A stretch of 64,000 nucleotides of DNA from Betaproteobacteria bacterium (GTDB lineage: Bacteria; Bacillota; SHA-98; UBA4971): the NCBI GenBank assembly GCA_050260395.1, contig JBLNCC010000124.1:5997-69996 (forward strand). The letters are read 5' to 3'. The notes under the pieces are model-generated. The model searched no databases and was not told the origin of the DNA. It worked only from the letters and a program-made list of their open reading frames with translations. A program made the translations under genes and the position numbers. Every line of letters begins with the position of its first letter. Within the stretch, counting starts at the first letter, position 1. Positions 819-33,994 of this stretch are shown in pieces.

Positions 819-826
819 TAAGAAAA

Positions 827-17617: not shown

Positions 17618-18044
17618 TCGCATCTCCGCTCTCTTCGTGCTTGCCCTGACGTTGGCGTTCGGGGTGCAGCTCCGAGGCCTTCCGGATCTCGACGCCCTAT
17701 TCCCGGAATGGGTTCTGGCCTTAGTAGTTGTGATGTCCATCGGGTTGCTCGTCACTTCCGGGGCAGGGAAAGGCTCGCGGAAGCCCTTCAAACTCCCGAA
17801 CATGCGAACCCTCGGGGCAGCCGTGGGGCTGATGATACTGTGGCTCATCCTCATTCCGATCGCGGGATTCTACGTGGCTAGCGTGCTCGTATCCACGATC
17901 TTCGCCGCGTTCGTCGACAGCCGGGTGCGGAAGCCAAGGGCTCTTGCGATTTCGTTGGCCGTGGTCGCCGCCGAGATCGGTCTCTTCTACGTGGTGTTCG
18001 CCAACCTGCTGGATGTCCCGCTGCCGCAGGGGCTCCTCTTCTGA
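17598..18044 (+). CDS. tctB: tripartite tricarboxylate transporter small membrane subunit TctB
   Basis: 148 aa, 4 TM helices, directly follows tctA. Confidence 0.6.
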   Translation: MYMLTVDRISALFVLALTLAFGVQLRGLPDLDALFPEWVLALVVVMSIGLLVTSGAGKGSRKPFKLPNMRTLGAAVGLMILWLILIPIAGFYVASVLVSTIFAAFVDSRVRKPRALAISLAVVAAEIGLFYVVFANLLDVPLPQGLLF

Positions 18045-18136
18045 TTCTAAGGCGGCGCGCGCGGGGCGGCAGGCCCGGGGAAGGCCGTCAACGTCGCATG
18101 TCAAACCAGTCGAAACGCGTCTGGGGGACTGTTATC

Positions 18137-19219
18137 ATGGATAGAATAAGCGTCGCTGTGGTTCCTGGTGACGGAATAGGGCCCGAGGTCACCGCGGAGG
18201 CGGTCAAGGTACTCAGGGTGGCCGCGGAAGTGCACGGCGGGCTCACGTTCAGTTTCACGGAGTTCGCCTGGGGTTGCGAATATTACCTGAAGCACGGCCG
18301 CATGATGGATGAACACGGCCTTGACGCGCTTCGCGACCACCAAGCCATACTCCTGGGTGCAGTCGGGGCGCCCGGGCTGGTTCCGGACCACATTTCCCTG
18401 TGGGGCCTGCTGCTCCCCATCCGCAAGTCCTTCGACCAGTATGTGAACCTCCGGCCCATCAAGCTGCTCCGCGGGGTGCCCGGACGGTTGATAGGCAAGG
18501 GCCCGGAGGACATCGACTTCGTGGTGGTCCGCGAGAACACCGAGGGAGAGTACTCCGGGGTCGGAGGCAGGGTCCACATCGGAACGCCTTTTGAGGTCGC
18601 GATCCAAAGCAATGTTTTCACTCGCCACGGGACGGAACGGATCATGAGATACGCCTTTGACCTGGCGAGGAAGAGACAGAAAGCAAAGCGCGTCGTGTCG
18701 GTGACGAAATCCAACGCGTGCAACTACAGCATGGTTTTCTGGGACGAAGTCTTCCACGCTGTGGCCGAGGACTACCCGGACATCGAGGCAGTCCAGGTGC
18801 ACGTGGACGCGGCGGCCATGTACGTGATCACGAGGCCCGAGTGGTTCGATGTGGTTGTCGCAACAAATCTTTTCGGGGACATTCTCACGGACGAGGGCGC
18901 GGCGATCCAAGGCAGCATCGGTCTTGCGGCGGGCGCGAATCTGAACCCGGAGAAGAAATACCCGTCTATGTTCGAGCCTATCCATGGTTCCGCTCCCGAC
19001 ATCGCTGGCAAGGGAATAGCAAACCCCATCGCAACTATATGGGCGGCCGCCATGATGCTGGACTTCCTGGGATACGAAGACATGGGCGAGCTCGTCATAT
19101 CCGCCATCGAACGCACCCTCCTCGAGGACGCGCCGAAGCCGCTCGACCTCGGAGGAACAGCGAGCACGTGTGAAGTGGGCGACGCGGTTTGCGAAAGCCT
19201 CTACCGGCTGGCAGGTTAG
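18137..19219 (+). CDS. tartrate dehydrogenase/decarboxylase or D-malate dehydrogenase (isocitrate/isopropylmalate dehydrogenase family)
   Basis: IAVVPGDGIGPEV N-terminus, NLFGDILTDEGAAIQGSIGLAAGANLN, Tyr/Lys/Asp catalytic signature. Start at the Met preceded by GGGGGA. Confidence 0.75.
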   Translation: MDRISVAVVPGDGIGPEVTAEAVKVLRVAAEVHGGLTFSFTEFAWGCEYYLKHGRMMDEHGLDALRDHQAILLGAVGAPGLVPDHISLWGLLLPIRKSFDQYVNLRPIKLLRGVPGRLIGKGPEDIDFVVVRENTEGEYSGVGGRVHIGTPFEVAIQSNVFTRHGTERIMRYAFDLARKRQKAKRVVSVTKSNACNYSMVFWDEVFHAVAEDYPDIEAVQVHVDAAAMYVITRPEWFDVVVATNLFGDILTDEGAAIQGSIGLAAGANLNPEKKYPSMFEPIHGSAPDIAGKGIANPIATIWAAAMMLDFLGYEDMGELVISAIERTLLEDAPKPLDLGGTASTCEVGDAVCESLYRLAG

Positions 19220-19249
19220 GCCGCAAGCCACACCACACGCAGCCGACGC

Positions 19250-20221
19250 TCATCCGACGCCGTTGCGTGCCACCTGGCGGGCCTCCGCGCCCGTCCGGGC
19301 GGAAAACAGGGTAAAGAGCGCTATCCCCGAGACCACAAGAACGCCTCCCGCGACCGCGGTCGCAGGGGGTGTCTCTTTCAACAGCGCCATCGCCAGCAGG
19401 GTGGCGCCCACAGGCTCCCCCAGCACGCTCACGGATATCACGGATGCGCTCACGTAGCGGAGGGCCCAATTGAACACGGTGTGCCCGAGGATCGTGGGAA
19501 TCGCCGCAAGGGCGAGAAAAAGCAAGTAATCGCGGATGGGGTAGGAATAAAGGCGCGACCCGTGGACAAGACACGTGACGGCGAGGATGACGGTGCATAT
19601 ACCGTACACGACGAAGGCGTACGGCGCCACCGAAAGCCTTTGTCTCACCCCCCTGCCCACGATAACGTAACCCGCGAACATGAGAGCCGAAAGGACAGCG
19701 AGAAGGTCGCCAAAAAGCACCGACCCTCCGCCGGCCGAATCGCCGAGACCGATGACGGCCGACCCGATCACGGCACCCACCGCCCCGGCTACTGCCCAAC
19801 CAGAGACCCTCTCACCGAAGATAAGGCGGCTTGCGAGCATCACAAATAGGGGGTGCGTCTCCACGAGCACCGCCGAGCTCGCGACGGATGTGAGGGAGAG
19901 GGAGGTCATCCACGCCCCGAAGTGCACTGCGAGAAAGCCGCCGGCAAGGAGCGAGAGAGCGAAGTCCCTGCGCCCCATGGCCAACACTTCGCGCCCCCCG
20001 CCCGCAAGCACGAACGGCGCCAACATGAGCGTCGCAAGCCCCATTCTCCACGTGGCTATGACCAGAGGAGGCGCTGACGATAGCCGCACGAAAACCGACG
20101 CGGACGAGACCGCGACAACGCCTATGCCGATGGCGGCCCAGGGCGGAACCCAAGGCCGCTCGCGCGCGCCTAGCGGAAGCCCTGCTGAAGCCCGCGCCTC
20201 CCTTTCCCCCGTGGCACTCAT
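19250..20221 (-). CDS. EamA-family (DMT superfamily) transporter, 10 TM
   Basis: Two EamA repeats of hydrophobic helices. Confidence 0.6.
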   Translation of the reverse strand: MSATGEREARASAGLPLGARERPWVPPWAAIGIGVVAVSSASVFVRLSSAPPLVIATWRMGLATLMLAPFVLAGGGREVLAMGRRDFALSLLAGGFLAVHFGAWMTSLSLTSVASSAVLVETHPLFVMLASRLIFGERVSGWAVAGAVGAVIGSAVIGLGDSAGGGSVLFGDLLAVLSALMFAGYVIVGRGVRQRLSVAPYAFVVYGICTVILAVTCLVHGSRLYSYPIRDYLLFLALAAIPTILGHTVFNWALRYVSASVISVSVLGEPVGATLLAMALLKETPPATAVAGGVLVVSGIALFTLFSARTGAEARQVARNGVG

Positions 20222-20369
20222 GCGACATCACCCCAAAAGGAATCCCCGATCCCCTGCCACCGGCGTCGAAATCAGCGAGCGGCCCGCCGAGGCCTTGGGC
20301 GCGCTCCGCCCTGACGCGGTGACATAACGAGATCTCGTCTTCTCCAGCGCCCCGGCCCCCGCAGCCGCT

Positions 20370-21137
20370 TCACCCGCGAGCGCCTCGGTCGAGGCTCCCG
20401 CACGCGGGGCAGTTGGGGTCGCGCGCGGCGCTCACTTCGCGCCACGTCATGGCAAGCCCGTCAAACAAAAGCAGCCGTCCGACCAAGGCCTCGCCTATAC
20501 CTAGGATGATCTTGAGCGCTTCGAGAGCCTCGATGCTGCCCACCACCCCCGGCACCGCGCCGAGGATCCCCGCTTCTCTCGGCGACGGCACTGTGCCGGG
20601 TGGTGGAGGCGCAGGGAACAGGCACCGATAGCACGGCCCCTTGCCCGGGATGATCGTGAGCACCATGCCGTCGAACCTCAGCACCCCCGCCTCTATCAGA
20701 GGCTTGCCGGCCCTCACGCACGCGTCGTTCACCACGTATCTCGTCTCGAGGTTGTCTACGGCGTCGAGCACCACATCGTACGCCTCGATGAGCTGGGACG
20801 CGTTCTCGGCATTGAGGCTCATGCGGCAGGGAATCACGTGGACGCTGGGGTTCAATCGCCCGATCGCACGCCTCGCGGACTCAACCTTTGCGAGGCCCAA
20901 GTGGTTGACGCTGTGTAGGATCTGTCTCTGTAAATTGGAGACATCGACCACGTCGGAGTCCACCAAGCCCAGGGTCCCCACCCCGGCCGCCGCGAGATAC
21001 ATGGCTGCCGGCGACCCCAAGCCCCCGACGCCCACCACCAGGACCTTGGCCGCCCGGAGCCGTTCCTGGCCCGCCTCACCGATTTCGGGCATCACAAGCT
21101 GCCTGGAATACCGCATCTTCTCTTCATTGGTCAACAT
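20370..21137 (-). CDS. moeB: molybdopterin-synthase adenylyltransferase MoeB/ThiF family (E1-like)
   Basis: RYSRQLVMPEIGEAGQERL and GVGGLGSPAAMYLAAAGVG. C-terminal CxxC pairs. Confidence 0.8.
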   Translation of the reverse strand: MLTNEEKMRYSRQLVMPEIGEAGQERLRAAKVLVVGVGGLGSPAAMYLAAAGVGTLGLVDSDVVDVSNLQRQILHSVNHLGLAKVESARRAIGRLNPSVHVIPCRMSLNAENASQLIEAYDVVLDAVDNLETRYVVNDACVRAGKPLIEAGVLRFDGMVLTIIPGKGPCYRCLFPAPPPPGTVPSPREAGILGAVPGVVGSIEALEALKIILGIGEALVGRLLLFDGLAMTWREVSAARDPNCPACGSLDRGARG

Positions 21138-21242
21138 TTTCGCACCACCGGCCTATGCGCCAGCCCTGACGCGAGCCGGACCGAGCTGGGCTCGGTCCGG
21201 TCGCACTGTGGGTCTGGGTACCTTGGCGCCCCGCCTGGTCAT

Positions 21243-22742
21243 CTAGAGACAGCCCGATCTCTCCACCACCCGCCGGAGCGCCTTTGTAGCCTCGCGTATC
21301 ACTTCATCTTCGTCAAAGGCGAGGAGTTTCCTCCCGTACATAAGGACCCGCCCATCCACGATGGTGGTCTCCACGTCAGACGCGTTCGCCTCGTACACGA
21401 TCCGGGCTGTGACGTCCACACCATCTGCCGGGACCGCGTGGGGCGCCCGAAGGTTCAGGATCACGATATCGGCGCGCTTTCCAGGCTCGATGCTGCCGAT
21501 CTCGTCCTCCAGGCCCATTGCGCGCGCGCCGCCCATCGTCGCCATCTCCAGCACCGTAGGGGCAGGCAGCGCGGTCGGTCCGAGACGAACTTTCTGAATG
21601 AGCGCGGCGTGCCGCATCTCCCGAAACATGTCGAGGTTGTTGTTGCACGGAGCGCCGTCCGCCCCCATCGACACGAACATGCCCATCTCGAGCATCTCGG
21701 GCACCCTCGCGATCCCTGAGGCCAGCTTGAGATTGGACGACGGGCAGTGGACGACCTTCGTGCCCGAATCGCGCAGGATGGCCATCTCTTCATCGTCGAG
21801 CCAGATGCAGTGCGCAAGAACGAGGTTCTGCCCGACGAGTCCGAGCTCGCGGAGGCAAACGACGTTGCGCATGCCTCTGTCCTGCTGCACAAGCTCCACT
21901 TCGCCGCGGTTCTCCGAAGCGTGGGTGTGAACGAGCACGCCTGCGGCCCTCGCCATATCACGGACCCGCACGAGAAGCTGATCCGAGCACGACACGACAA
22001 ACCTCGGCGCGAAAGCGTAACGGATTCTACCGTCATCATGCATGTGCCACCGGTCGAGCAGCGCCTCGCTCTCACGAAGCGAATCCGGGGTGGATTCCTT
22101 GAGACTCGCGGGCACGTCGGAGCCGTAATCCATCATCACTTTCCCGGACGCGGCCCGGATGCCTGACGAGTCGATCGCCCAGAATGCGCTCTCGGTGTGG
22201 TGGACGGTCTCCATATCAATGATAGCCGTGGTTCCACCCTTGATAAGCTCGGCTATGCCGAGCATCGCGGACCAATAGACGCTTTCCTCATCGTGCGCGC
22301 CCTCGAGCGGCCAGATGCGGTTCCGCAGCCAGTCCAGGAGCTCGAGGTCGTCCGCCTGACCCCGAAAGAGCGTCTGACAGAGGTGCACATGCGCCTGGAC
22401 GAACCCCGGAAGCACGATCTTTCCCGCAGCGTCTATGACCATGTCCACGTCATGCCTGTGCACGCCCACGGGAAGCTCGTGAAACCCTGCGTCAGTCGGG
22501 CTCGAGCCGCATTCCTCGTTGCGGGCAATGTGCGCCGAACGTGCCTCGAGACCACCCGCCGCATCTGGATCTGGGCCCGGCCCGCCTCCGTCATTTGAAT
22601 GCCACCGCCCCCTGTGGCCTGACCCCGGCCAGACCACCTCGGCTATCCTCCTCCCGTCGATGAGGACGTCCGCGCCCTCCAGCACCTCTCGTCTACTGTT
22701 CATAGTGACAACGGTTCCGCCGCGGATGAGGATCTTCGCCAC
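21243..22742 (-). CDS. amidohydrolase (chlorohydrolase/guanine-deaminase/SsnA-like metal-dependent hydrolase)
   Basis: LPGFVQAHVHLCQ metal-binding His pair, HASE, and the D near the C-terminus typical of the TIM-barrel amidohydrolase superfamily. Confidence 0.7.
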   Translation of the reverse strand: MAKILIRGGTVVTMNSRREVLEGADVLIDGRRIAEVVWPGSGHRGRWHSNDGGGPGPDPDAAGGLEARSAHIARNEECGSSPTDAGFHELPVGVHRHDVDMVIDAAGKIVLPGFVQAHVHLCQTLFRGQADDLELLDWLRNRIWPLEGAHDEESVYWSAMLGIAELIKGGTTAIIDMETVHHTESAFWAIDSSGIRAASGKVMMDYGSDVPASLKESTPDSLRESEALLDRWHMHDDGRIRYAFAPRFVVSCSDQLLVRVRDMARAAGVLVHTHASENRGEVELVQQDRGMRNVVCLRELGLVGQNLVLAHCIWLDDEEMAILRDSGTKVVHCPSSNLKLASGIARVPEMLEMGMFVSMGADGAPCNNNLDMFREMRHAALIQKVRLGPTALPAPTVLEMATMGGARAMGLEDEIGSIEPGKRADIVILNLRAPHAVPADGVDVTARIVYEANASDVETTIVDGRVLMYGRKLLAFDEDEVIREATKALRRVVERSGCL

Positions 22743-24581
22743 CTACGCCACTCCTTTCGCTTCTATCCCAAGCGCCTCGATCTTCTCTCGGGTGGGCACG
22801 CCATCAAGAGTCCACCCGCGTCTGGAATAGTACTCGGGGAGCATCCTCGCCAGGTCCACTGTCACGCCTTTCGCGGGCCCTTCGGGGAGGCCTTCCGTCA
22901 GAAAACGCTTGGGAAGGGTATCGTCATCCGGCGTCATACCGCACCGCAGGTTGAAGATTCTTTCCGTATTAACGATCCTCTCGCCTATGGTAAGGAGGTC
23001 TGTCTCAGAGTAGCATCGCCCCATCGCAAATGTCAGAAGGTCCGCGACGTCCTTCGGCATGACGGCGTAAGTCGCAAACGTGCAGTACTTGCATATCTCG
23101 GCCGAGTCGCACACCGCGCCGTAGTTCTCATGCCAGATGACCATCGGGACCTTGCCGTTCTCGGTGTACGGGTTCACACAGTCAGGGCTCCCGAACCAAC
23201 GGACCCCTTCCTCCCTCGTCTTGCTAAGGAGCTCGAAGTTGGGAAGGGCGCGCAGGTGATCTCCACCCCTGCTTGCCACGGCTTCGCCCAGCGCAAAGCC
23301 CTTGCCAGTGCGCACGTCGAACGCCGGAAGCTCGAGCCCTTTCACGTGAAGGGCAAACCCCTCGCTGCCGGGGATCTCGCGAGACATCGCCTTCACGCCT
23401 TTTGCGAGGAAGGCCCCGATGCCGTCGCGGTAAGCGATCTTGCGGAGGCAATCGATGACGAAGTCCGCGTCGCCCCACTCGTATTTCTCGTCGATGAGGC
23501 CGCGCTGCGAGCATTCCATGAGGAACGCGATGCTCGTGCCGACGGATATGGTGTCAAGCCCGTAGTCGTTAGCGAGCTGATTGGCCTTGAGAATGGCTGC
23601 GAGAGACCCCACGCCCACTCTGGTTCCAAGCGTGACCATGGTCTCGTACTCTGGGCCCATGTTCTCGCACTCGTACGGCGCTGAGGTGACCCGGGCGTAG
23701 TTCTTGCAGTGCAGGATGCACGAGAAGCACGCTTTGGAAGCGAGCTTGTAGGTGTCCTGGTACACGTGGCTCGAGATCTTTTCGTAGTGCTCGAACAGGC
23801 CGAGCTGCCCGTTTCTCGTGGAAAGCCCGCCGCCCGCCTGGGCGATGTCCACAAGGATCAGCGTTCCGTACTCGGAAAAGTCCGCGTAGGTTGGATCGGC
23901 CATAAGCTTCCTGTGGCACTCCCGAACCTTCGCGAGGAACCTCTCATCGTCTGCCACCGGAATGTCGCCCGAACCGCGCACAGCAATGGCTTTGAGGTTC
24001 TTGGACCCCATGACCGCGCCCACGCCCGTGCGCCCAGCAGCATCGTGGCCGGCGGTCATGATGTTCGCGTACGGAACGAGGTTCTCACCAGCCTGGCCTA
24101 TGGCGATGACCTTGACGTCCCTCCCGTGCGTCTTCTCGAGGGCGCTCACGGTGTCGAACACGCCTCGTCCCCACAGGTGAGACGCGTCGCGCAGCTCCAC
24201 GTGGTCGTCATCGATGAACAGGTAGACCGGCCCCCTTGCCCTGCCTTCGATAATTACGGCGTCGTACCCGGCGAACCGGAGTTCAGGGCCGAAATGCCCG
24301 CCGGAGTTGGCGTCTCCGAGGAGCCCGGTGAGGGGCGACTTGCAGCCCACAGTGAACCTGCCAGAGGAGGGGGACAGAGTCCCGTCCAACGGGCCTGTGG
24401 CGATGGTCAGGACGTTCTGGGGCGACAGAGGGTCGACGTGAGCGTCAACAAGGTCGTAAAGCACTTTGGAAGTAAACCCGCGGCCTCCGAGGTAGCAGGA
24501 CTTCCACTCCTCCGGCACCCTGGTTTTGCGCGTCCGGCCGGCGGCGAGGTCCACCCAGAGCAACCTATCCATGTACGACAC
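22743..24581 (-). CDS. aor: tungsten-containing aldehyde:ferredoxin oxidoreductase (AOR family)
   Basis: N-terminal WVDLAAGRTRKTRVPEEW...YLGGRGF AOR signature, 612 aa. Confidence 0.8.
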   Translation of the reverse strand: MSYMDRLLWVDLAAGRTRKTRVPEEWKSCYLGGRGFTSKVLYDLVDAHVDPLSPQNVLTIATGPLDGTLSPSSGRFTVGCKSPLTGLLGDANSGGHFGPELRFAGYDAVIIEGRARGPVYLFIDDDHVELRDASHLWGRGVFDTVSALEKTHGRDVKVIAIGQAGENLVPYANIMTAGHDAAGRTGVGAVMGSKNLKAIAVRGSGDIPVADDERFLAKVRECHRKLMADPTYADFSEYGTLILVDIAQAGGGLSTRNGQLGLFEHYEKISSHVYQDTYKLASKACFSCILHCKNYARVTSAPYECENMGPEYETMVTLGTRVGVGSLAAILKANQLANDYGLDTISVGTSIAFLMECSQRGLIDEKYEWGDADFVIDCLRKIAYRDGIGAFLAKGVKAMSREIPGSEGFALHVKGLELPAFDVRTGKGFALGEAVASRGGDHLRALPNFELLSKTREEGVRWFGSPDCVNPYTENGKVPMVIWHENYGAVCDSAEICKYCTFATYAVMPKDVADLLTFAMGRCYSETDLLTIGERIVNTERIFNLRCGMTPDDDTLPKRFLTEGLPEGPAKGVTVDLARMLPEYYSRRGWTLDGVPTREKIEALGIEAKGVA

Positions 24582-24587
24582 CCGTCC

Positions 24588-25025
24588 TCACCTCGTTTTC
24601 AGGGCAAGGGCCCCGGTAGTGCAGAACTTCACGCACATAGGATCGCCGTGGCAGAGGTCGCAGACGAGAACGGTCCCATCGAATATGCGAACCCCGCCGG
24701 ACGGACACGCGGCGACGCACTCGCCGCACAGGTTACACGCGGCGTCGTCCACGAACACCTCCCCGTCGTCCCACGCGAGTGCCCCCCTCTTGCACGCCTC
24801 GACGCAAGGGTGCTCCGTGCAGTGGTTGCACACGTGGAGCTCTTCGCTACACCCGCGCCGGAGCACCTGTATGCGCGCCCGCTTCGGGTTGAACGCGCCG
24901 AAGTGCGCGATGGAGCAGGCAAGCTCGCAGTTCCTGCACCCGGTGCACTTCTCCGGGTTGAACACCCGGATGTCCATGTCGTTCCCGCGCCTCAGCACCT
25001 CGAGCATTTCATACCCTGAAGCCAT
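24588..25025 (-). CDS. 4Fe-4S dicluster ferredoxin-like protein (multiple CxxCxxCxxxCP motifs)
   Basis: Four CxxCxxC clusters. Start chosen at MASGYEM, which gives an ATGA overlap with the upstream hydrogenase stop. Confidence 0.6.
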   Translation of the reverse strand: MASGYEMLEVLRRGNDMDIRVFNPEKCTGCRNCELACSIAHFGAFNPKRARIQVLRRGCSEELHVCNHCTEHPCVEACKRGALAWDDGEVFVDDAACNLCGECVAACPSGGVRIFDGTVLVCDLCHGDPMCVKFCTTGALALKTR

Positions 25026-25026
25026 T

Positions 25027-26991
25027 TCATCGCGCACCTCCTCCCGCCGGTTTGACCGAAGCGCCCGTCGTGCCGGTTCCCCCGGCGGCCGGCGTACCCT
25101 CCGCGTGAGAGCCACCCGCACTTCGATCTGAGCTGTTGAGTTGAGCGGCGAGACGCACCGGGTCATGCAGGAGCTCTTTCGCCCGGCCCCCGCCCGACTC
25201 GCCCAGAAACCGCGCGTAAAGCTCGACGACACCCGGGTTTCGACGCGGGTATCGCTCCGCGATGGCTTGGTCGATAGCCCGCAGCGCCGCGCCCCGCAGC
25301 CGCTCGGGCCCGCCCTCCGCGCCCTCCTGGTTCATCGCGATCGGCTGACCGCCTCCACCTACGCAGCCGCCGGGGCAAGCCATCACTTCGACGAAGTCGT
25401 ATCGCCGCTTTCCCGCCGCCACGTCGTTCAATATCTGCCTTGCTGCCGCAAGCCCTTGGACCACAGCCACGCGCAAGGCAAGGTGGCCGAGGGTCACCGT
25501 CGCTTCAGCCACGCCTGGACCGGGAGGCCCGCTGACAACGCGTCCGTCCCCGTCCGCCTCAAGCCTCACCCCAAGCTCGTCCGCGAGCGCCCGGAGCGCC
25601 GCGTCCATGACCCCGCCCGTAGTGCCGAATATGGCCCCTGCGCCGCTTGCGCTCCCGAGGGGGTCATCGAATCCGCTCTCCTCTAGCGACTCCACGTCCA
25701 TCTCGACCGACTGAATCAGCCGAATGAGCTCGCGCGTGGTGAGGACCGCGTCGACATCGCGCAGTGCGCCCCGCATCCCCCCGGCCCCGTGGTCTGTGCC
25801 GTCGTCCGAGGCTCCAGGCGCTTCCGGGCCTAGCCCTCCTTTCCTCGCGGCCTCGAACTTCTTCGCTGTGCACGGCATCACGGACACGACGTACACGTCC
25901 TCCGGGGCCACGCCCTCGGCCTCGTGGATCACCATCTTTGCGACGGCTCCAGCCATCATGTGAGGCGACTTACATGTTGAAAGGTGCTCAGTGAGGTCGG
26001 GATACTCGGTCTCCACAAACCTCACCCACGCGGGACAACACGAAGTGAACATGGGTAACTTTCCGCCTGTTGCCAGGCGTTGCCTTAGCTCGTGCGCTTC
26101 CTCGACCGCCGTGAGGTCCGCCCCGAACGCCGTGTCGAACACCCTGTCGAACCCGAGCTTTCGCAGGGTGGCTACCATGAGCGTCGTGGAGACCGTCCCC
26201 GGCGGCTTGCCCCATGCCTCTGCGAGGGTAGCCCGGAGCGCGGGTGCCGTCTGAGCTACCATGAGGGTCCCGCGGTCCGCGAGCTGGCGCCTCACCTTAA
26301 CCAGTTCCGACCTCTCCGAGAGTGCTCCAGTGGGGCACGCGACCACGCACTGCCCGCACTCCACGCACCGCGTCGCCGCCGCTCTGTCCTCGAAGGCGAG
26401 CGAACGGCACCGCGCCCACTCCTCGCCCAGGACCCCGCGCGGCCCGGTCCGCTCGATGATGCCGCGGGCCTCCTCGACCTCGGCGGCCAACGACTCATGA
26501 GGAACGATGCCGTGCATCTTCATGCACGCCGCGACGCACCTTCCACACATGATGCACTTGTTCGGATCGCGGACTATCGCTTGGCCCGTCCTGTCCACCG
26601 TAAGCTTCTGCCGCCTCACAGGGAGCCTGCGAACACGCACGCCGAGCTCGTCGCCAAGCGCCTTCAGCTCGCAGTATGCCCTCCGCTCACACACGAGGCA
26701 CTCTCCGGGATGCTGGGCCAAGAGGAACGTCACTACCTCGCGGCGCCTTGCCACCACCCTGTCCGTCGCGGTACGAATGACCATGCCCGGCTCCACAGCA
26801 TGGTCGCATGCGGTCACCAAATCGTCCCTGCCCTCCACCTCGACCACGCACACTCCACACCCCGCGCCGCGCTCGATCCATGGATGGTGGCACAGCGTCG
26901 GCACCCGCGCTCCGGCGCGCCTCGCGGCCTCCAGGATGGTCGTCCCCTCGGGCACACAGCACGCCCGACGGTCCACCAAGACCTCCAGCAC
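25027..26991 (-). CDS. hydA: [FeFe]-hydrogenase catalytic subunit (HydA, monomeric CpI-like M3 architecture: 2Fe-2S, accessory 4Fe-4S clusters, H-cluster domain)
   Basis: H-cluster motifs L1 TSCCPAWV, L2 MPCTAKKFE, L3 EVMACPGGCVGGGGQP. Start set at GTG preceded by GGAGGTGAGG; ORF is open back to 27144. Confidence 0.8.
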   Translation of the reverse strand: MLEVLVDRRACCVPEGTTILEAARRAGARVPTLCHHPWIERGAGCGVCVVEVEGRDDLVTACDHAVEPGMVIRTATDRVVARRREVVTFLLAQHPGECLVCERRAYCELKALGDELGVRVRRLPVRRQKLTVDRTGQAIVRDPNKCIMCGRCVAACMKMHGIVPHESLAAEVEEARGIIERTGPRGVLGEEWARCRSLAFEDRAAATRCVECGQCVVACPTGALSERSELVKVRRQLADRGTLMVAQTAPALRATLAEAWGKPPGTVSTTLMVATLRKLGFDRVFDTAFGADLTAVEEAHELRQRLATGGKLPMFTSCCPAWVRFVETEYPDLTEHLSTCKSPHMMAGAVAKMVIHEAEGVAPEDVYVVSVMPCTAKKFEAARKGGLGPEAPGASDDGTDHGAGGMRGALRDVDAVLTTRELIRLIQSVEMDVESLEESGFDDPLGSASGAGAIFGTTGGVMDAALRALADELGVRLEADGDGRVVSGPPGPGVAEATVTLGHLALRVAVVQGLAAARQILNDVAAGKRRYDFVEVMACPGGCVGGGGQPIAMNQEGAEGGPERLRGAALRAIDQAIAERYPRRNPGVVELYARFLGESGGGRAKELLHDPVRLAAQLNSSDRSAGGSHAEGTPAAGGTGTTGASVKPAGGGAR

Positions 26992-27278
26992 GCCCCTCAC
27001 CTCCAATCGCCCATTCTCTCGTGATCGATCCCTTTCGTCCCCGTTCCGCCACCCGCTCACCGTTCTCGCCGGAGACCCGCGCTCGGCCGGCGCCCGGCGC
27101 CCACCGGTCCCCGCGTGGCAGTGAGGCTCGAAAACACGCTCCATATTCTAGGGAAAACACACGCCCCACTGACCTAACGTGCGCTCCGCGCAACCCCGAA
27201 AGCCTGCGTCCACTCGCTCAGAAGGCCGCCCCAACCGGCCCCGGGGCGCCGAGATCGAGCGAACGATCCCCGGACGCC

Positions 27279-27351
27279 CTCTCATAGCCAGGTTGGTTGC
27301 GGCCTCCTGGTAGAAACGCCTGAACCCACGATTATCAGGTCTATATGAGAG
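27279..27351 (-). ncRNA. guanine-riboswitch-class (purine/xanthine/8-oxoguanine variant) aptamer candidate
   Basis: Minus strand reads CUCUCAUA-UAG-[P2]-GUUUCUACC-[P3 with CCGCAA loop]-C-UAUGAGAG. It has an 8-bp P1, the conserved J2/3 GUUUCUACC, and C at the ligand-specifying J3/1 position. It sits in the leader of the hydA-fd-aor genes inside a purine catabolic cluster. Confidence 0.5.
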
Positions 27352-27446
27352 TAACGCCTTGGAGCGCTATAGTTAGTGTCTTATGAATATTCGGCGGAAA
27401 CCTCGGCACTCCTCCCTACCCCGCCGCAGCGGTCAACGACCCGCGC

Positions 27447-28838
27447 TCACATGCGGGCAGCACGGATCATCACGTCAATCTCGGGCACTTTCGCGCGCTG
27501 TGCCACCCAGTATTCCTGGCTCTTCTGCGCGTTGAGTTCCTCGACCGTCTTGCCCTGCTGCTCCACCCAGGTGTAGTACTTCAGATTGTGCCAGCGCTTT
27601 CGGTTCTCTACCGTGCCTTCGACCACGTAGTCGAGCTTGGCAGAGAGGAATATCGCCTCATAGCGACATGCCGCTTTCACGCGGTCCATCGCGCCGTACC
27701 TCTCCGAGAGCGCCCTCATCACCGACTTGTATCGGTCTATGGCGTCCGTGGCCACGGTGACGATGTTGTCGTTCGGGCCGAATCCGTAGAACTTCGCCGT
27801 CTTGATCGCACCCAGGATGTTGCACACCCCCGAGATCCCGATGATGCCCGAGAGCGTTTCCGCGGCCTCCTGGTCGATCCCCACGTCGCCTGTGAGATAC
27901 TCAAGCCCCACGGGATCGGTCAGAAGCTGAAGTCCTTTCTTGCATTCCAGGTCGTCAACGCACATCATGGCGTCCATGTTGTTCACGTTATGGATCCACG
28001 TAACGTGCTTGTCGCCGATCCCCTGGATGTCATGGGCGCCGTACCCGTTATAGGAAAGCGTGGGACATTGGATAGGCTCGAGGCCCACGATGCGCGTCTC
28101 GTAGAATACCTCTTTCAGGCGGTCGCCGGCCGCGATGGTTCCTGCCGAACCCATCGCCGATACGAACGCTGCCGTTCTCCCGTTTCCTATGCCCTTTTGG
28201 GCGAGCTCCTGGACGGCCTCGACTATGCTGTTGCCGGTGACGTAGTAGTGAAACCGGTAGTTGCCCATCTCCTCGAATTGGTTCAGGACACGCACTCGAT
28301 CTGGGTCCGCCCCAACCAATTCCTTGCACTTGTCGTAGATCTCCTTGACGTTGCTCTCGCAGCCCGGTGTCGCGATGGCACGCGCGCCGTAGAACGCTAT
28401 CCGCTCGAACCGCTCGGCGCTCATTTGCTCTGGCAGTATGACAAGAGAGTCATACCCCATCCTCGGGCCCACCCAGGCCCCGCCGATCCCGTAGTTGCCT
28501 GTGGACGGCCATACCAGCGTGTGTTCCCCCGGCCGGATCTCCCCACGGAGCTGCTTCTCCACGGCCACGGAGTACGTCGCCCCCACCTTGTGGCTGCCTG
28601 TGGGGAAGTCTCTGCTGTAAAGGAGGATGATGTTTGGCTCCACCCCCGTCAGCGCCTTCGGCACCACGAAGCACCTCACCTTGTTGTCCGGCCCTTTCCA
28701 CGTGATGTTGTACAAGTTGACGGGATCGAGCACGTCCTCCTGAAACGCCTTGAGGGCCCTCTCCCTCACGTTCGGGTTGATGCGCTCGGGATGGAGCATC
28801 TCCTCGAACGTGGGGCCATACACCAGCTTGCGTGTCAT
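27447..28838 (-). CDS. PLP-dependent fold-type II enzyme (TrpB/cysteine-synthase-like), substrate unknown
   Basis: FPTGSHKVG lysine-PLP motif and STGNYG glycine loop. 463 aa. Confidence 0.55.
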   Translation of the reverse strand: MTRKLVYGPTFEEMLHPERINPNVRERALKAFQEDVLDPVNLYNITWKGPDNKVRCFVVPKALTGVEPNIILLYSRDFPTGSHKVGATYSVAVEKQLRGEIRPGEHTLVWPSTGNYGIGGAWVGPRMGYDSLVILPEQMSAERFERIAFYGARAIATPGCESNVKEIYDKCKELVGADPDRVRVLNQFEEMGNYRFHYYVTGNSIVEAVQELAQKGIGNGRTAAFVSAMGSAGTIAAGDRLKEVFYETRIVGLEPIQCPTLSYNGYGAHDIQGIGDKHVTWIHNVNNMDAMMCVDDLECKKGLQLLTDPVGLEYLTGDVGIDQEAAETLSGIIGISGVCNILGAIKTAKFYGFGPNDNIVTVATDAIDRYKSVMRALSERYGAMDRVKAACRYEAIFLSAKLDYVVEGTVENRKRWHNLKYYTWVEQQGKTVEELNAQKSQEYWVAQRAKVPEIDVMIRAARM

Positions 28839-28856
28839 AACTCTCTCACCTTTCCG

Positions 28857-30185
28857 TTAGAACCTCTCCCACACCCTTCTCGCGAGTTCGCGCGAGCGGG
28901 CCGAGATCCTCTCCTCGTCGAGCCCCGTAAGCTTGCGGCCGCGCATGAGCACACACCCAGCCACCACCGTCGTGTCTACCAGGCCGCCGCTCATGCCGAA
29001 CAGGACGTGGCTACAGTAGTTGGAGGGGTCGAGCGGCGTCGGGGGACGGTAGTCCACGACTATCACGTCACCGGCAGCGCCCGGTTCGAGCATGCCCAGC
29101 TTGAGCCCGAAAACCCTGCGGGCGATCTCCCTGTTGTTCTGGAATGCCATTGCGGGCACCTCGCCCCACGCCGCGCTCGGGTTCTTCTCGGCAAGTTTAT
29201 GGAGGATGTTAGCGACCTTCACCGACTCGAACATATCGGCGGTGTAGCCGTCGGTCCCGAGGCCGACCCTCACTCCCCTATCCATCATCCGCAGGACGGG
29301 CGCGACGCCCACAGCGTTACCCATGTTCGACTCGGGATTGTGCACCACGTTCACGTCGCGCTCGCGCAAGATCTCCATCTCGGCCTCGCTGACGTGAACG
29401 CAGTGAGCCGCGATGGTCTTCGGACCGAGGATGCCGAAGGCGTCGAGACGCTCCACGACCCGCTTGCCCGACTTTGCCAGCGCGTCCTCCACGTCCTCGA
29501 GCCCCTCGGCCACATGAACGTGGAACCCAACGTCGAGCCCCTCAGCGGCGTCTCGGCATTTCGCCAGCGTCGCGTCGGACAGAGTGAGCTGTGCGTGGAG
29601 CCCGAACGACGCGGCGAGATGTTCGCCTCGCTCGCGCCTGCACCTCTCGATGAACCTCACGTTCTCACGGATGCCTTGGTCGGCGATATCCGCGCCGTCC
29701 CTGTCGGAGACCTCGTACGCCAGGCATGCCCTGATCCCGGCCTCGTCCACCGCGCACGCTATCTGGTCGAGGCTGCCCCGAACCGCCATCGGGCTGGCGT
29801 GATGATCGAGGATGGTGGTCGTCCCGCAACGGATGCAGTCGATGAGCGGAACCAGGGCGCTCACGTACACGTCCTCCGGCCCCAAAGCCTTGTCCAGCCT
29901 CCACCACAGACGCTCCAAGATCTGGATGAATGTGCGGGGCGGCGCGTCTTTGAGCGCCATTCCCCGCGCAAACGTGCTGTACAGGTGCATGTGGGCGTTT
30001 ATCATGCCGGGCATGATCACGCGGCCTCCGGCATCGATGAACTCGGCGTCTGGATAGCGTCGCCTCATTTCGCCCGTGGCGCCGACATCGCGGATGATGC
30101 CGCCTTCGATAGCGACCGCGCCGTCGCCCAGCACCCGTCCCTGGGCGTCGAGGGTGATGAGACGGCCTCCCCCGATGATAAGCAT
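28857..30185 (-). CDS. ssnA: SsnA-type amidohydrolase (putative aminohydrolase of the selenium-dependent molybdenum hydroxylase locus)
   Basis: MINAHMHLYSTFARG. 442 aa, the same length as E. coli SsnA. Confidence 0.65.
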   Translation of the reverse strand: MLIIGGGRLITLDAQGRVLGDGAVAIEGGIIRDVGATGEMRRRYPDAEFIDAGGRVIMPGMINAHMHLYSTFARGMALKDAPPRTFIQILERLWWRLDKALGPEDVYVSALVPLIDCIRCGTTTILDHHASPMAVRGSLDQIACAVDEAGIRACLAYEVSDRDGADIADQGIRENVRFIERCRRERGEHLAASFGLHAQLTLSDATLAKCRDAAEGLDVGFHVHVAEGLEDVEDALAKSGKRVVERLDAFGILGPKTIAAHCVHVSEAEMEILRERDVNVVHNPESNMGNAVGVAPVLRMMDRGVRVGLGTDGYTADMFESVKVANILHKLAEKNPSAAWGEVPAMAFQNNREIARRVFGLKLGMLEPGAAGDVIVVDYRPPTPLDPSNYCSHVLFGMSGGLVDTTVVAGCVLMRGRKLTGLDEERISARSRELARRVWERF

Positions 30186-30210
30186 CGTTCCGTGCCCCCT
30201 TCCGATGCGT

Positions 30211-30771
30211 TCAGTCTGCCGAATCCCCTGAGTGAACCTCTCCGTCCTGGTCCCGCGCCTTCATCCTGGCGGCCGCGTCCTCTATTGCGGAGATGATCTG
30301 GTGATACCCCGTGCATCTGCAGAGGTTGCCCGAAATGGCGCGGGCGATCTCCTCCCTCGTGGGCTCGGGATTCTCGCGAAGGAGCGCGGCTGCCGCCATA
30401 AGCATCCCCGGCGTGCAGAACCCGCACTGCACCGCGGCGTGCTCGACGAAGGCTTCCTGGAGCGGGTGAAGCCTGCCGTCCCTCGCGAGCCCCTCCACGG
30501 TCTCGACTTCGCGCCCTTCCACCTGAAGAGCCGGAACGAGGCAGGAGTTCGCGGGCTTTCCATCGAGAAGCACCGTGCAAGCACCGCACTCACCGATCCC
30601 GCACCCTTCCTTGGTACCGGTAAGCCGCAGGCGCTCGCGGAGCACGTCTATGAGCCTGTCCTCCGGCGAAACCTCGACCTCGACCGCCCGGCCATTAACC
30701 CTGAACGATACGGTCGCGTTCGTCCCCGGTTCCACTTTCCTCACTCCACGTTCACCCCCAAAGCCTGCCAT
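30211..30771 (-). CDS. xanthine dehydrogenase-family [2Fe-2S] small subunit (CoxS/XdhC-type)
   Basis: GCGIGECGACTV plant-type cluster plus a second CxxC...C cluster. Confidence 0.8.
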   Translation of the reverse strand: MAGFGGERGVRKVEPGTNATVSFRVNGRAVEVEVSPEDRLIDVLRERLRLTGTKEGCGIGECGACTVLLDGKPANSCLVPALQVEGREVETVEGLARDGRLHPLQEAFVEHAAVQCGFCTPGMLMAAAALLRENPEPTREEIARAISGNLCRCTGYHQIISAIEDAAARMKARDQDGEVHSGDSAD

Positions 30772-31628
30772 ATGGCGCGCCTAGCAACAGCCTCAAGGGC
30801 GGGCTTCTTGTAGTCGGTGGACCAACGCACCCCCGTCCTCCTCACCATTTCCTGCGCGACTTCCCGCGCTGCGGCGGCGACGACGGCGTGGTCGGGGATG
30901 CTGCCCACCAAAATCTCCTCAGCCGACGAAACCCGCGCAGGCATCGGCAGGCATGCCCCGGGAACGATCGCGGCCCGCACCACGCGTCCGGCCTCATCGC
31001 GTTCGATGACCGCAGCGCAGCTCAAGCGCGCGATCGCTAGGGCCTCCCGGCGCCCTAGCTTCACGAAGGCACACCCGCACGCCGGGGGGAGCGCGTCGAA
31101 ATACACGTTCACGAGAACCTCCCCCGGCACAGCGCGGTTCTTGTAGGGCCCATCAAATACGTCTGTGATGAGGACGTCGCGAGTGCTTCCGACGTCCGAA
31201 AGCCGAACCCTCGCGGAAAGCGCCACGAGCGCAGGGATGGTGTCGGCCGCCGGCGAGGCGTTCATTATGTTCCCGCCGATCGTCCCGCGCGCGCGGACCT
31301 GCGGCGAACCCACGCTCGCGCATGCTTCCGCGAGAAGCCGCGCCCCCTTCCTGACGATAGGGTTTCGGGCTATCTCCTCGTGCACCGTGAGCGCTCCGAT
31401 CGTGATGGTGCCGGCGCCGGTGCATACGCCCGAAAGCCCCCGAATGCGCGAGACATCCACGAGCCACCGCAGGTCACTTCGGCTCCCGTGCCGGGCCTGC
31501 CGCCTGAGCTGGACCAGGACGTCCGTGCCACCCGCGACGGCCACGGCCTGCCCAGCATGTTCCCGCAGGAATCCGCTGGCCTCCTCCAAGGTCTCCGGCA
31601 CCACGTAACCGAGTTTCAGGAGGCTCAT
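30741..31628 (-). CDS. xanthine dehydrogenase-family FAD-binding subunit (CoxM/XdhB-type)
   Basis: FAD_binding_5 fold: AGGTDVLVQL, GTIGGNI. Confidence 0.75.
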   Translation of the reverse strand: MSLLKLGYVVPETLEEASGFLREHAGQAVAVAGGTDVLVQLRRQARHGSRSDLRWLVDVSRIRGLSGVCTGAGTITIGALTVHEEIARNPIVRKGARLLAEACASVGSPQVRARGTIGGNIMNASPAADTIPALVALSARVRLSDVGSTRDVLITDVFDGPYKNRAVPGEVLVNVYFDALPPACGCAFVKLGRREALAIARLSCAAVIERDEAGRVVRAAIVPGACLPMPARVSSAEEILVGSIPDHAVVAAAAREVAQEMVRRTGVRWSTDYKKPALEAVARRAIWQALGVNVE

Positions 31629-33994
31629 GACATCTCACTTCCCCTCTTGCCGCGCGCGGCCTTGAGCGATCGCCCCAGCAGCACTCTCTCGAGGTCCAAC
31701 GGAAGCTCCCGCACTCTCCTGCCCGTCGCATGCGCCACCGCGTTCGCAATGGCCGGCGCGAGAAGCTCGCAGGTAGGCTCCCCGATGGTCTTCGCGCCGT
31801 ACGGGCCATACGAATCCGGGTTTTCCACCACGATCGGGATGACCTCTGGCACATCCACGGACGTGGCGATGAGGTACTCGTCGAAGTTCTGGGTCCTCGT
31901 GACGCCCCTCGACATTTCGACCTCCTCCAGGAGGCCGTATCCCATTCCCATGGCCACGCCGCCGTATATCTGTCCCTCCACGGTCGCGGGGTTGATGGCT
32001 CTGCCAACGTCGTGCGCGGCGGCCACCTTCAGCACTTTGACCCTGCCCGTCTCGGTGTCCACCTCGACCTCAGCTGCCTGGCAACCATACACGTACGTGA
32101 AGTAGGCCCTCCCTTGGCCGTGCTCCTCGTCCCACGAGACCTTCGGGCCCTTATACCAGCCGAAGGCCGCCATGAGCTCCCCGCGGTTGTATGCGGCCTG
32201 CGCAACCTCGCCAAAGCTCAAGCCCCGCGCGGGGTCGTCGGCGACGAATATCCTGCCTCCCGAAGACCTAAGCGCGTCGGAGGACGTTCCGAGCATCTCT
32301 CCCGCCACGCCCAGGAGCGTTTCGCGGACCTTCCGGGCGGCGTCGCGCACCGCAGACCCGCCCATGACGGTGCTGCGCGACGCCACCGTCGGGCCGCCGT
32401 CCGGGATGAGCGACGTATCGGTGTCCATGAACACCACGTCCTCCAGGTCGCACCCGAGCTCCTCCGCGGCGATCTGGCTGAAGATCGTCCGGAGCCCCTG
32501 GCCGTTCTCGGCTAAGCCTGCATACACGTATACGCTGCCGTCCTGCTGCACCGAGACGATGGCCCCCGTCGCATCAACGCCCTCCCCACCCAAGCTGACG
32601 CCGCGGTAGCTCACGGCAAGCCCGACCCCGCGGACCTTCTTCGCCCCTTCCCGCCGCGCCGCCTCAGCATATGCCCGCCTTTTCTCGCGGTACCCGATGG
32701 CCTCCGCGGCCTTTTGCATCACCTCCACAAGGCTCACCGCGTGGTCGTCGAGCGTCTGGCCGGTGGCCGTGACCGACCCTTGCCGGAAGCCGTTCTTCAG
32801 GCGCAGGTCCAGCGGATCCATGTTGAGCTCGGCGGCAAGCTCGTCCATCAAGGACTCGTGAGCGAAGATGATCTGCGGGCTTCCGAACCCCCTCATGGCG
32901 CCCGTGTACGTATTGTTCGTGTATACGCCGTACACATCTGTCTTGACGTTAGGGACCTCGTAAGGCCCAGTCGCCTGCACCACCGAGCGCCACGTCACGA
33001 ACGGCGTCATCGAGGCGTAGGCCCCTCCGTCTGCCAGGATGCGTATCTCCATGGCAAGGAGCTTGCCGTCCCTCGTAGCCCCGACCTTGTACCTGAGCAC
33101 GTATGGGTGTCGCTTGTATCCCTCGACGATGGACTCCTCGCGGGTGTTCACCATCTTCACGGGCCGTCCCGTCTTGAGGGCCGCCAGCGCTGCCCGCGCG
33201 CACATGCACGACATAACGTCGTCCTTGCCTCCGAACGACCCTCCCATCGCGCACTGAACGATCCGAACCCTGTTCAGGCTCACCCCGAGGACGTGCGCCA
33301 CGACGCGCCTCGCGGTGAAAGGGTTCTGGATCGACCCATATACCGTGACGGATCCTTCGCCCGGGTTCGGGACCGCCACCGCGGCCTCGGGCTCAATGTA
33401 CGCGTGCTCGATGAACTGGGTGCGGTACTCGCGCTCGATGACGACGTCTGACGCGGCGAACCCGGCGTCCACGTCCCCTTTGCGGACTACGTGGTGGTTT
33501 ACGATGTTGCCAGGCGCGTCGTCGTGTAGGATCGGTGCGCCCTCCGCCATGGCTTCTTCCGGCGAAAACACGGCGGGAAGCTCCTGGTACTCGACGCGCA
33601 CGAGCTCGCAAGCCCGCTCGGCCGCCTCCACGGTGGCCGCCACGGCCATTGCCACGCCATCGCCCAAATAACGCGTCTTGTCGAAGGCGAACACGGGCAT
33701 ATCCCGCCGCACCGGTCCGAAGGTCTTGGCACCAGGGATGTCCTCGTGAGTGATGACAGCAGCGACTCCCGGGACTCTCGATGCCTCGCTTGTGTCGATT
33801 CGGACGATCCTCGCGTGGGGGAACCTCGCCCGCAGCACACGTGCGTAAAGCATGCCGTCGAAGTACAGATCCGCCGCGAATTTCGCCCTGCCGGTCACCT
33901 TCTCCACCGCGTCCACACGCCTCGCCCGGTGGCGCACTATGCTGAATTCATCCTGCAGGCCGTCCCTGGCGGCCGGGTCTCCAGCATTCCCCAC
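31625..33994 (-). CDS. xanthine dehydrogenase-family molybdopterin-binding large subunit
   Basis: 789 aa. VDAVEKVTGRAKF N-terminus, GGGFGGK, Mo-pterin binding domains. Confidence 0.8.
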   Translation of the reverse strand: MGNAGDPAARDGLQDEFSIVRHRARRVDAVEKVTGRAKFAADLYFDGMLYARVLRARFPHARIVRIDTSEASRVPGVAAVITHEDIPGAKTFGPVRRDMPVFAFDKTRYLGDGVAMAVAATVEAAERACELVRVEYQELPAVFSPEEAMAEGAPILHDDAPGNIVNHHVVRKGDVDAGFAASDVVIEREYRTQFIEHAYIEPEAAVAVPNPGEGSVTVYGSIQNPFTARRVVAHVLGVSLNRVRIVQCAMGGSFGGKDDVMSCMCARAALAALKTGRPVKMVNTREESIVEGYKRHPYVLRYKVGATRDGKLLAMEIRILADGGAYASMTPFVTWRSVVQATGPYEVPNVKTDVYGVYTNNTYTGAMRGFGSPQIIFAHESLMDELAAELNMDPLDLRLKNGFRQGSVTATGQTLDDHAVSLVEVMQKAAEAIGYREKRRAYAEAARREGAKKVRGVGLAVSYRGVSLGGEGVDATGAIVSVQQDGSVYVYAGLAENGQGLRTIFSQIAAEELGCDLEDVVFMDTDTSLIPDGGPTVASRSTVMGGSAVRDAARKVRETLLGVAGEMLGTSSDALRSSGGRIFVADDPARGLSFGEVAQAAYNRGELMAAFGWYKGPKVSWDEEHGQGRAYFTYVYGCQAAEVEVDTETGRVKVLKVAAAHDVGRAINPATVEGQIYGGVAMGMGYGLLEEVEMSRGVTRTQNFDEYLIATSVDVPEVIPIVVENPDSYGPYGAKTIGEPTCELLAPAIANAVAHATGRRVRELPLDLERVLLGRSLKAARGKRGSEMS

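Follow-up and report, generated by a model that had tools for sequence, protein, structure and literature searches.

A guanine-class riboswitch ahead of a hydrogenase, aldehyde oxidoreductase and deaminase unit beside a purine fermentation cluster, with a predicted ON-type platform

The locus and its aptamer

The DNA considered here is a 64,000 nucleotide (nt) stretch of contig JBLNCC010000124.1 (assembly GCA_050260395.1), referred to as the window. On its minus strand an aptamer lies ahead of hydA, which encodes an [FeFe] hydrogenase and is followed by genes for a ferredoxin-like protein (fd), an aldehyde:ferredoxin oxidoreductase (AOR, gene aor), an amidohydrolase/deaminase, a MoeB-type adenylyltransferase and a transporter (Table 1). 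The element is a genuine guanine-class riboswitch, a member of a well-known RNA family. An earlier reading of the letters alone (the original prediction) had described it as a guanine-class aptamer in a purine catabolic cluster upstream of hydA-fd-aor, and its match to the Rfam family RF00167, its C74 and the gene order bear this out. The gene upstream, for a pyridoxal phosphate (PLP) enzyme, ends at 27447, 95 nts before stem P1, and hydA, put at about 290 nts downstream, starts with the GTG at 26991, 287 nts after P1.

Table 1. Coordinates of the features in the window (P, stem; L, loop; J, junction; MFE, minimum free energy)
Feature	Position	Strand	Basis or remark
Promoter-like motif AGGAGTG-N11-GCCGAAT	27389..27413	-	-35 at 27413-27407, -10 at 27395-27389
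Guanine-class aptamer	27279..27351	-	RF00167 match; kept in 22 related loci
P1, 8 bp, CUCUCAUA/UAUGAGAG	27351-27344 with 27286-27279	-	model alignment
J1/2, UAG	27343-27341	-	model alignment
P2/L2	27340-27318	-	model alignment
J2/3, GUUUCUAC	27317-27310	-	model alignment
P3/L3	27309-27289	-	model alignment
J3/1, GC (G73, C74)	27288-27287	-	model alignment
GC-rich hairpin directly after P1	27243..27278	-	predicted in ligand-free and aptamer-folded states (16 leaders)
Anti-aptamer 3′ strand CCGGUUGGGGCGGCCUUCU	27220..27238	-	pairs with P3 region 27309-27289; MFE folds
Rest of leader	26992..27219	-	poorly conserved; Shine-Dalgarno GGAGG at 27004-27000
hydA, group A [FeFe] hydrogenase, first regulated gene (predicted), start GTG 26991	25027..26991	-	Pfam, NCBIfam
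fd, 4Fe-4S ferredoxin-like protein	24588..25025	-	
aor, AOR family (tungstopterin)	22743..24581	-	Pfam AFOR_N, AFOR_C
COG0402 amidohydrolase/deaminase	21243..22742	-	gene most consistently linked to the aptamer
moeB, MoeB/ThiF-type adenylyltransferase (molybdopterin synthesis)	20370..21137	-	after the deaminase wherever DNA reaches
eamA, EamA-family transporter	19250..20221	-	last gene of the unit
PLP enzyme upstream of riboswitch	27447-28838	-	only weak cysteine-synthase-like NCBIfam matches; no YgeX (diaminopropionate ammonia-lyase) assignment
Distal PLP enzyme	50171-51526	-	much stronger Pfam PALP match
Three tandem tRNA genes	746-1014	-	Rfam, 64.8-76.2 bits

Searched with Rfam 15, the full window gives four matches above the gathering score, RF00167 (Purine) and the three tRNAs. 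The RF00167 match, at 27265-27368 on the minus strand, is full length (model positions 1-102) and scores 45.9 bits, where the gathering score is 37, with an E value of 1.8e-4 for the 64-kb window and all 4227 families, or 7e-6 for the local 2.5 kb. This is the covariance model with which it had been suggested that the site be checked. RF00167 is the top-scoring member of clan CL00123 at the site, and a permissive local scan (26000-28500, E <= 10) gives nothing besides it near threshold.

The minus-strand sequence originally given for 27351-27279 is exact, and its parts (P1, J1/2, J2/3, the GG of L2, the CCGCAA of L3 and C74) fall where the model alignment puts them. P2 has seven positions, the outermost being an A/C mismatch (A25/C45). 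P3 has two non-standard pairs; another way to draw it is with 4 bp, then an A/AA internal loop, 2 bp more and a loop of 6 nts. Both L2 and L3 had been called longer than canonical. This is so for L2, which carries GG and two inserted bases, but not for L3, which in the Rfam alignment is CCGCAAC, 7 nts. The sequence elements of a putative loop-loop contact, in which GG would meet CC with A-U and A-A contacts besides (AAU...GG in L2, CCG.AA in L3), are kept in all 15 distinct aptamer sequences found, with the two extra bases in L2. Besides these two bases, the non-consensus features are G24, A25/C45, G73 and the A-rich internal loop of P3. Directly 5′ of P1 there is a small hairpin (UAGCGC-UCCAAG-GCGUUA, 27352-27369, minus strand), and a UCCAA-like motif before P1 also recurs in leaders that stand directly before deaminase genes.

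All genes from 51526 down to 19250 are on the minus strand. Those upstream encode, in order toward the aptamer, a PLP enzyme, a carbamate-kinase-like protein, a hydantoinase-like amidohydrolase, an M20 peptidase, a carbamoyltransferase of the ornithine carbamoyltransferase (OTCase) fold, XdhC, a MobA-like protein, a PreT/YgfK-like flavoprotein, a PreA/UacX-like protein of the dihydroorotate dehydrogenase (DHODH) fold, two large subunits of the xanthine dehydrogenase family with their flavin adenine dinucleotide (FAD) and 2Fe-2S partners, SsnA and the second PLP enzyme. The part at 27447-51526 carries nearly the whole gene set of the reductive uric-acid (2,8-dioxopurine) pathway published in 2025, and the riboswitch unit sits at the end of a reductive uric-acid/purine fermentation cluster of ~32 kb. 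The 2025 papers on the pathway make no mention of a riboswitch, a tungsten enzyme or a hydrogenase, and no description was found in the literature of a purine riboswitch with an aldehyde ferredoxin oxidoreductase, an amidohydrolase or a guanine deaminase. Within the unit, HydA is a 100% match to a database protein of 654 amino acids, and AOR aligns with Pyrococcus furiosus AOR (PDB 1aor) at 500 bits. The source metagenome-assembled genome (MAG) is labelled Betaproteobacteria; the close relatives of its hydA and deaminase are all from MAGs of Firmicutes/Bacillota/Clostridia, several from biogas fermenters. Gene order and strong GGAGG ribosome sites also look Firmicute, and a mistake in taxonomy or binning may lie behind the label.

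Relatives, the linked deaminase and the transcription unit

HydA has ten orthologs at 63-83% identity, the next homologs down being at 47%, and the contigs of the ten were examined. Nine of the ten carry the same aptamer (43-49 bits), which makes ten loci, as L085 and L086 encode the same protein. The remaining one, L093 (1-1058), with 63% HydA identity and a hydA-fd-aor-deaminase-moeB-eamA cluster, has just 133 nts upstream and carries no purine aptamer; there the riboswitch was lost or never gained. A pattern scan of metagenome contigs, with G24, A25, C45, J2/3, C54 and G72-A76 fixed, gave 28 matches, of which 13 are real aptamers (45.6-54 bits) and ~15 are chance matches, as expected. One of the 13 is at a hydA-type locus. 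The other 12 are directly upstream of orthologs of the window deaminase (61-69% identity over long alignments), with moeB next in eight (all those whose DNA reaches there), with no hydrogenase, ferredoxin or AOR gene, and among unrelated surrounding genes. Since the deaminase gene, with moeB wherever the DNA reaches far enough, stands at these loci without the redox genes, the deaminase and MoeB are the constant cargo of the riboswitch. The same aptamer is present in 22 related loci, 10 before hydA orthologs and 12 before deaminase orthologs, and altogether 23 copies, 10 hydA-linked and 13 metagenomic, are over the Rfam threshold (relatives, 43.2-54 bits). A HydA search of genome contigs found only generic hydrogenases of ~40% identity, none with the aptamer core. 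At one deaminase locus (L098) a CRISPR repeat array, with four RF01315 matches at 5841-6069, directly follows the riboswitch-deaminase-moeB unit.

Among the 15 distinct aptamers P2, P3 and all junctions are invariant. The only differences lie in the L2 insertion, at positions 48 and 63, at one base of the internal loop and in P1, where six sequences show a switch of one pair between G-C and A-U, the sole covarying pair of the clade. Between the window and its closest relative, L081, the aptamer is identical at 73 of 73 positions, the hairpin downstream at 90% and the rest of the leader at 59%. As the fourfold-degenerate sites of hydA are 73.6% identical in the same comparison, the aptamer is under strong purifying selection and the match is not due to chance.

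What the linked deaminase acts on bears directly on what the aptamer is likely to bind. NCBIfam assigns it to PRK07228, ‘5′-deoxyadenosine deaminase’, at 665 bits (cut-off 522), and it falls under the cut-off of the 8-oxoguanine deaminase model NF006055 (283.7 against 532 bits). Its closest solved relatives are methylthioadenosine/S-adenosylhomocysteine (MTA/SAH) deaminases, which have the motifs HxHxxM and PHA; the window protein has HVHLCQ and PRF. In direct alignment E. coli GuaD has HIHYPQ and PRF, and SsnA proteins lack these. The glutamine directly after β-strand 1 binds the exocyclic oxygen (O6) of guanine and is found in no cluster but that of GuaD, to which 8-oxoguanine deaminase and AtzB also belong (PMC12828455). 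Both GuaD-type motifs are present in at least 105 of the 120 best homologs by regular-expression search. Two more distant homologs (56-59% identity; L123 4001-5338 and L124 4001-5329) lie within clusters of xanthine dehydrogenase genes; the one in Alkaliphilus metalliredigens is beside an adenine deaminase and a xanthine permease. An aptamer was looked for upstream of these two homologs and is absent. Because the HxHxxQ and PRF motifs are as in GuaD, and the glutamine is specific to the GuaD cluster, a guanine-type deaminase is the most likely identity of the window protein, in keeping with an aptamer that has C74. With these motifs and the xanthine dehydrogenase clusters in mind, the annotation as 5′-deoxyadenosine or MTA/SAH deaminase across Firmicutes is probably wrong. 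The window deaminase also has a Gly/Pro/Asp-rich insertion of ~45-55 residues near its N-terminus (residues ~45-100) that is missing from E. coli GuaD and SsnA and is shorter in low-GC orthologs.

Aligning the 120 nts upstream of P1 from 16 leaders shows two invariant blocks, AGGA.T and GAAT. In the window they are part of a promoter-like motif with a spacing of 11 nts, which we take to be that of the sigma-H promoter class. The motif fits the sigma-H consensus RNAGGAWWW / RNNGAATWW (PMC8510167). At L088-L091 the genes upstream of the aptamer are unrelated, being for sugar metabolism, so the aptamer travels with the hydA...eamA unit and not with the xanthine dehydrogenase genes. The conserved motif and these unrelated upstream genes argue that the aptamer is the 5′ leader of a unit of its own, comprising hydA, fd, aor, the GuaD-like deaminase gene, moeB and eamA, with a putative promoter just before it. 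It had been proposed to gate the distal part of the operon. It does precede hydA-fd-aor, but as the leader of a separate unit rather than as an internal gate. If the sigma-H-like promoter is real, it would link the operon to transcription in the transition state or the sporulation phase.

The expression platform

Sixteen distinct leaders were folded, both free and with the aptamer constrained, with nearest-neighbour energies that include no tertiary or ligand energy. In 15 of them the MFE fold is one long hairpin in which the P3 5′ strand is paired with a downstream strand. The 5′ half of this hairpin runs from the P3 5′ strand through L3, the P3 3′ strand and J3/1 to the P1 3′ strand; the hairpin directly after P1 forms the apex, and a CCUCCU-like strand stands at the end of the 3′ half. 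L097, the sixteenth, has its P3 5′ strand in local pairs, while the 3′ strands of P3 and P1 still join an anti-aptamer hairpin. Aptamer and long hairpin are mutually exclusive. In the MFE fold of the window the hairpin, terminator-like in form, spans 27309-27220 (minus strand), and a spurious Rfam match to mir-1915 exposes the same pairing of P3 with downstream sequence. The apical hairpin persists in both states, and the aptamer-constrained fold is 3.6-16.7 kcal/mol less stable than the ligand-free one.

In 12 of the 16 leaders P3 is more complementary to the downstream strand than it is in at least 95% of dinucleotide shuffles. The complementarity is strongest of all in the window, with a duplex energy of -38.3 kcal/mol; shuffles give -24.2 +/- 2.8, and none of 300 reaches the window value (z = -5.0). 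The hairpin is followed by a clear U-tract in eight leaders (e.g. UUAUUUUUUGU in L104), by a weaker U-rich tail in four and by none in four. Inspection of the platform for terminator/antiterminator alternatives, suggested from the outset, thus turned up a mutually exclusive anti-aptamer hairpin but, in the window, neither a canonical terminator nor a U-tract. No canonical intrinsic terminator and no sigma-70 promoter was found on the relevant strand of the window leader, and within 26992..27219 no Rfam match comes near its gathering score at E <= 10.

The anti-aptamer 3′ strand contains CCUCCU (27220-27230, minus strand; ACCUCCUUA in several relatives, among L081-L110), which we take to resemble the 3′ end of 16S rRNA. 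The P3 5′ strand is AGGAGG (27303-27308, minus strand), Shine-Dalgarno-like. The same strands are seen in relatives among L081-L110.

In the pbuE adenine riboswitch the terminator forms at the cost of P1 and P3, there is an A-A mismatch in P3, and P4/L4, present in both states, serves as nucleator (PMC7707468). As the predicted platform architecture here is that of the pbuE ON switch, the folding results indicate that the element is probably an ON switch of pbuE type. With no U-tract behind the hairpin, the window leaves the output step uncertain.

Ligand, rival explanations and known systems

The bases that contact the ligand in guanine-I aptamers, U22, U47, U51 and C74 (PMC9295807, PMC10556655, PMC12282948), are all canonical, and so are the lengths of J2/3 (8 nts) and J3/1 (2 nts), which have no insertion. 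The validated variant classes differ at just these places. Xanthine-II has U51G with insertions in J2/3 (2 nts) and J3/1, and guanine-II keeps U51 and has a 1-nt insertion in J2/3 and another in J3/1 (PMC9295807). The 8-oxoguanine class has lost U47 (PMC10556655), and the 2′-deoxyguanosine (2′-dG) classes have remodelled junctions (PMC12282948). The original suggestion of a specificity variant is accordingly not borne out, since the window aptamer has no defining change of any variant class. Its statement that 8-oxoguanine variants stand upstream of xanthine dehydrogenase operons was inaccurate, as they are always upstream of 8-oxoguanine deaminase genes (PMC10556655).

Assignments to other known classes were considered and set aside. 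Xanthine-II does not agree with the retained U51 and the lack of junction insertions, nor guanine-II with the canonical junction lengths. Retention of U47 argues against 8-oxoguanine as ligand, and the linked deaminase is under the NF006055 cut-off. An adenine aptamer would have U74, not C74. For 2′-dG-I, -II or -III, J2/3 is canonical and RF00167 is the best member of CL00123 at the site. Xanthine-I (the NMT1 motif) has a different fold and no match in 26000-28500 at E <= 10. From the contact bases the ligand would be guanine, paired with C74, and we have no evidence for another.

Rather likely, in our judgement, the element is a guanine-I type riboswitch that heads its own unit and turns it on by guanine-induced antitermination. 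Without ligand, the downstream pyrimidine-rich, CCUCCU-like strand would capture the P3 helix, J3/1 and the P1 3′ strand, the capture being nucleated by the hairpin directly after P1, and the product would be one long hairpin that, with the U-tract of most relatives, would form an intrinsic terminator. Guanine would pair with C74 and lock the three-way junction, so that the terminator could not invade the aptamer and transcription would go on. Hypoxanthine or xanthine may act likewise, more weakly. Free guanine would in this way induce its own deamination to xanthine as well as synthesis of the molybdenum cofactor (Moco) for the neighbouring xanthine dehydrogenases, and in the lineage of the window it would also induce the ferredoxin/hydrogenase/AOR redox module.

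Several observations weigh against this account. The window and three high-GC relatives (L081, L084 and L092) have no U-tract after the hairpin, and of the six deaminase-type leaders four have a P3/downstream complementarity that is not significant by itself. Intrinsic-terminator-like sites are no more frequent than expected by shuffling in this 63% GC window (9 found, 10.9 expected, over 12000-31999); the organism may rarely use canonical U-tract terminators. Databases name the deaminase a 5′-deoxyadenosine deaminase. P2 and P3 never vary in the 15 distinct aptamers and so show no covariation within the clade, and support for the fold therefore comes from the Rfam model rather than from the clade by itself. 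In the 13 metagenomic matches G24, A25, C45 and G73 are invariant by construction, as the pattern demanded them, and only in the nine distinct hydA-linked sequences does the invariance of positions 24, 25, 45 and 73 count as independent evidence. G24 is unseen among 89 guanine aptamers, and A24G and A73G are disruptive in xpt (PMC2018637).

This last point leads to the thought that the clade with G24/A25-C45/G73, its 9-nt L2 and its P3 internal loop is a separate ligand-specificity class on a guanine-I scaffold, responding to xanthine, uric acid, hypoxanthine, 8-oxoguanine, 2,8-dioxopurine or another 2-amino or 2-oxo purine formed as an intermediate in anaerobic purine fermentation, or having a sharper selectivity for guanine like that of guanine-II. 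In the 89 aptamers positions 24, 48 and 73 are the least conserved of the core, position 24 being only A or U and position 73 ~90% conserved, and in the xpt context A24G or A73G each abolish 2-aminopurine binding (PMC2018637). The window has G24 and G73 where the consensus has A or U and A, at positions that are conserved and not ligand-contacting. With G24 unprecedented in the 89 and both substitutions abolishing binding in xpt, affinity or selectivity could differ here, and since the conserved changes adjoin the pocket we count a separate class as possible, if unlikely. The second-shell changes are invariant in nine distinct hydA-linked aptamers found by protein homology alone, the Rfam scores, at 44-54 bits, lie at the low end of the family distribution, and the gene link is tight and atypical, with all real matches to the signature upstream of one deaminase family, which resembles the 8-oxoguanine class. 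However, U22, U47, U51, C74, the entire J2/3 and the length of J3/1 are canonical, and each validated variant class alters at least one of those contact bases or junctions. Position 73 had been correctly read as G, yet G73 is also present in a natural guanine binder, LM-pbuG, and positions 24 and 73 are context-dependent (PMC2018637). One possibility is that G24 pairs with C45, A25 bulging out as a spacer in place of A24. The GuaD-like deaminase downstream, moreover, fits guanine itself.

Control in the opposite direction, or at the level of translation, would have the ligand free the CCUCC strand to mask the Shine-Dalgarno GGAGG, or have a terminator form in the bound state as in xpt. The anti-Shine-Dalgarno-like downstream strand and the Shine-Dalgarno-like P3 5′ strand suggest it, as does the missing U-tract of the window, and in six of the 16 leaders the Shine-Dalgarno is clearly more paired in the aptamer-constrained ensemble. 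In the other 10, the window included (0.60 to 0.80 unpaired), it is unchanged or goes the other way, and because of this inconsistency a translational mechanism was not adopted as the main one. The strand is also 100-290 nts from the Shine-Dalgarno, no stable bound-state hairpin adjoins the U-tract, the U-tract directly after the aptamer-destroying hairpin in 12 of 16 leaders is ON logic, and for a catabolic operon induction by its substrate makes better sense than repression. We regard such a switch as improbable. Least credible is that the window aptamer is a relic without regulation, its terminator U-tract decayed and its leader grown to 287 nts. The lack of a U-tract, shared with L081, L084 and L092, and the poorly conserved distal leader (59% identity to L081) would fit decay; full identity of the aptamer and 90% identity of the platform hairpin against 73.6% at neutral sites would not, nor would an anti-aptamer complementarity that is the strongest of all leaders in the window itself. 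Some other read-out is plausible there, given that canonical intrinsic terminators are not enriched in the genome.

If guanine-induced antitermination is right, it adds an ON-type member with C74 to a family in which nearly all guanine sensors are OFF switches, and it puts a hydrogenase/ferredoxin/AOR module under purine control beside the reductive uric-acid (2,8-dioxopurine) pathway. The linkage is also a regulatory clue that the widespread Firmicute ‘5′-deoxyadenosine deaminase’ family appears to supply anaerobic purine degraders with their guanine deaminase. With its conserved second-shell substitutions the clade offers a natural test of how far the guanine pocket tolerates changes of context. 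Were the clade a separate specificity class after all, its regulon would mark [FeFe] hydrogenase, ferredoxin and a tungsten-type AOR as unrecognised enzymes of purine fermentation.

Set beside the guanine-I riboswitch of Bacillus subtilis xpt-pbuX, the element has the same three-stem junction, J2/3, U22, U47, U51 and C74, and in its loops the GG and CC that a loop-loop contact requires; it differs in G24, G73, A25/C45 in place of U25-A45, the 2 nts added to L2 and the P3 internal loop. Typical guanine-I members are OFF switches before genes of purine synthesis, salvage or transport, whereas here ON is predicted and the genes are for a deaminase, MoeB, a hydrogenase and AOR. In platform it is closer to the pbuE (ydhL) adenine riboswitch of B. 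subtilis, with a predicted hairpin that consumes P1 and P3, a nucleator after P1 (27243..27278 being the counterpart of P4/L4), an A-A mismatch in P3 and ON logic (PMC7707468), though pbuE has U74, senses adenine and controls an efflux pump, while the window has C74, a longer hairpin and no U-tract. With the 8-oxoguanine riboswitch of Paenibacillaceae it shares an aptamer derived from guanine-I, ON control (predicted here), restriction to a narrow clade and a COG0402 deaminase downstream (PMC10556655), but U47, absent from that class, is kept, and the deaminase scores 283.7 against the 532-bit cut-off. Xanthine-II and guanine-II of Paenibacillus have the same three-stem scaffold, predicted ON control and genes of purine degradation or salvage (PMC9295807); the J2/3 and J3/1 insertions of both, and the U51G of xanthine-II, have no counterpart in the window aptamer.

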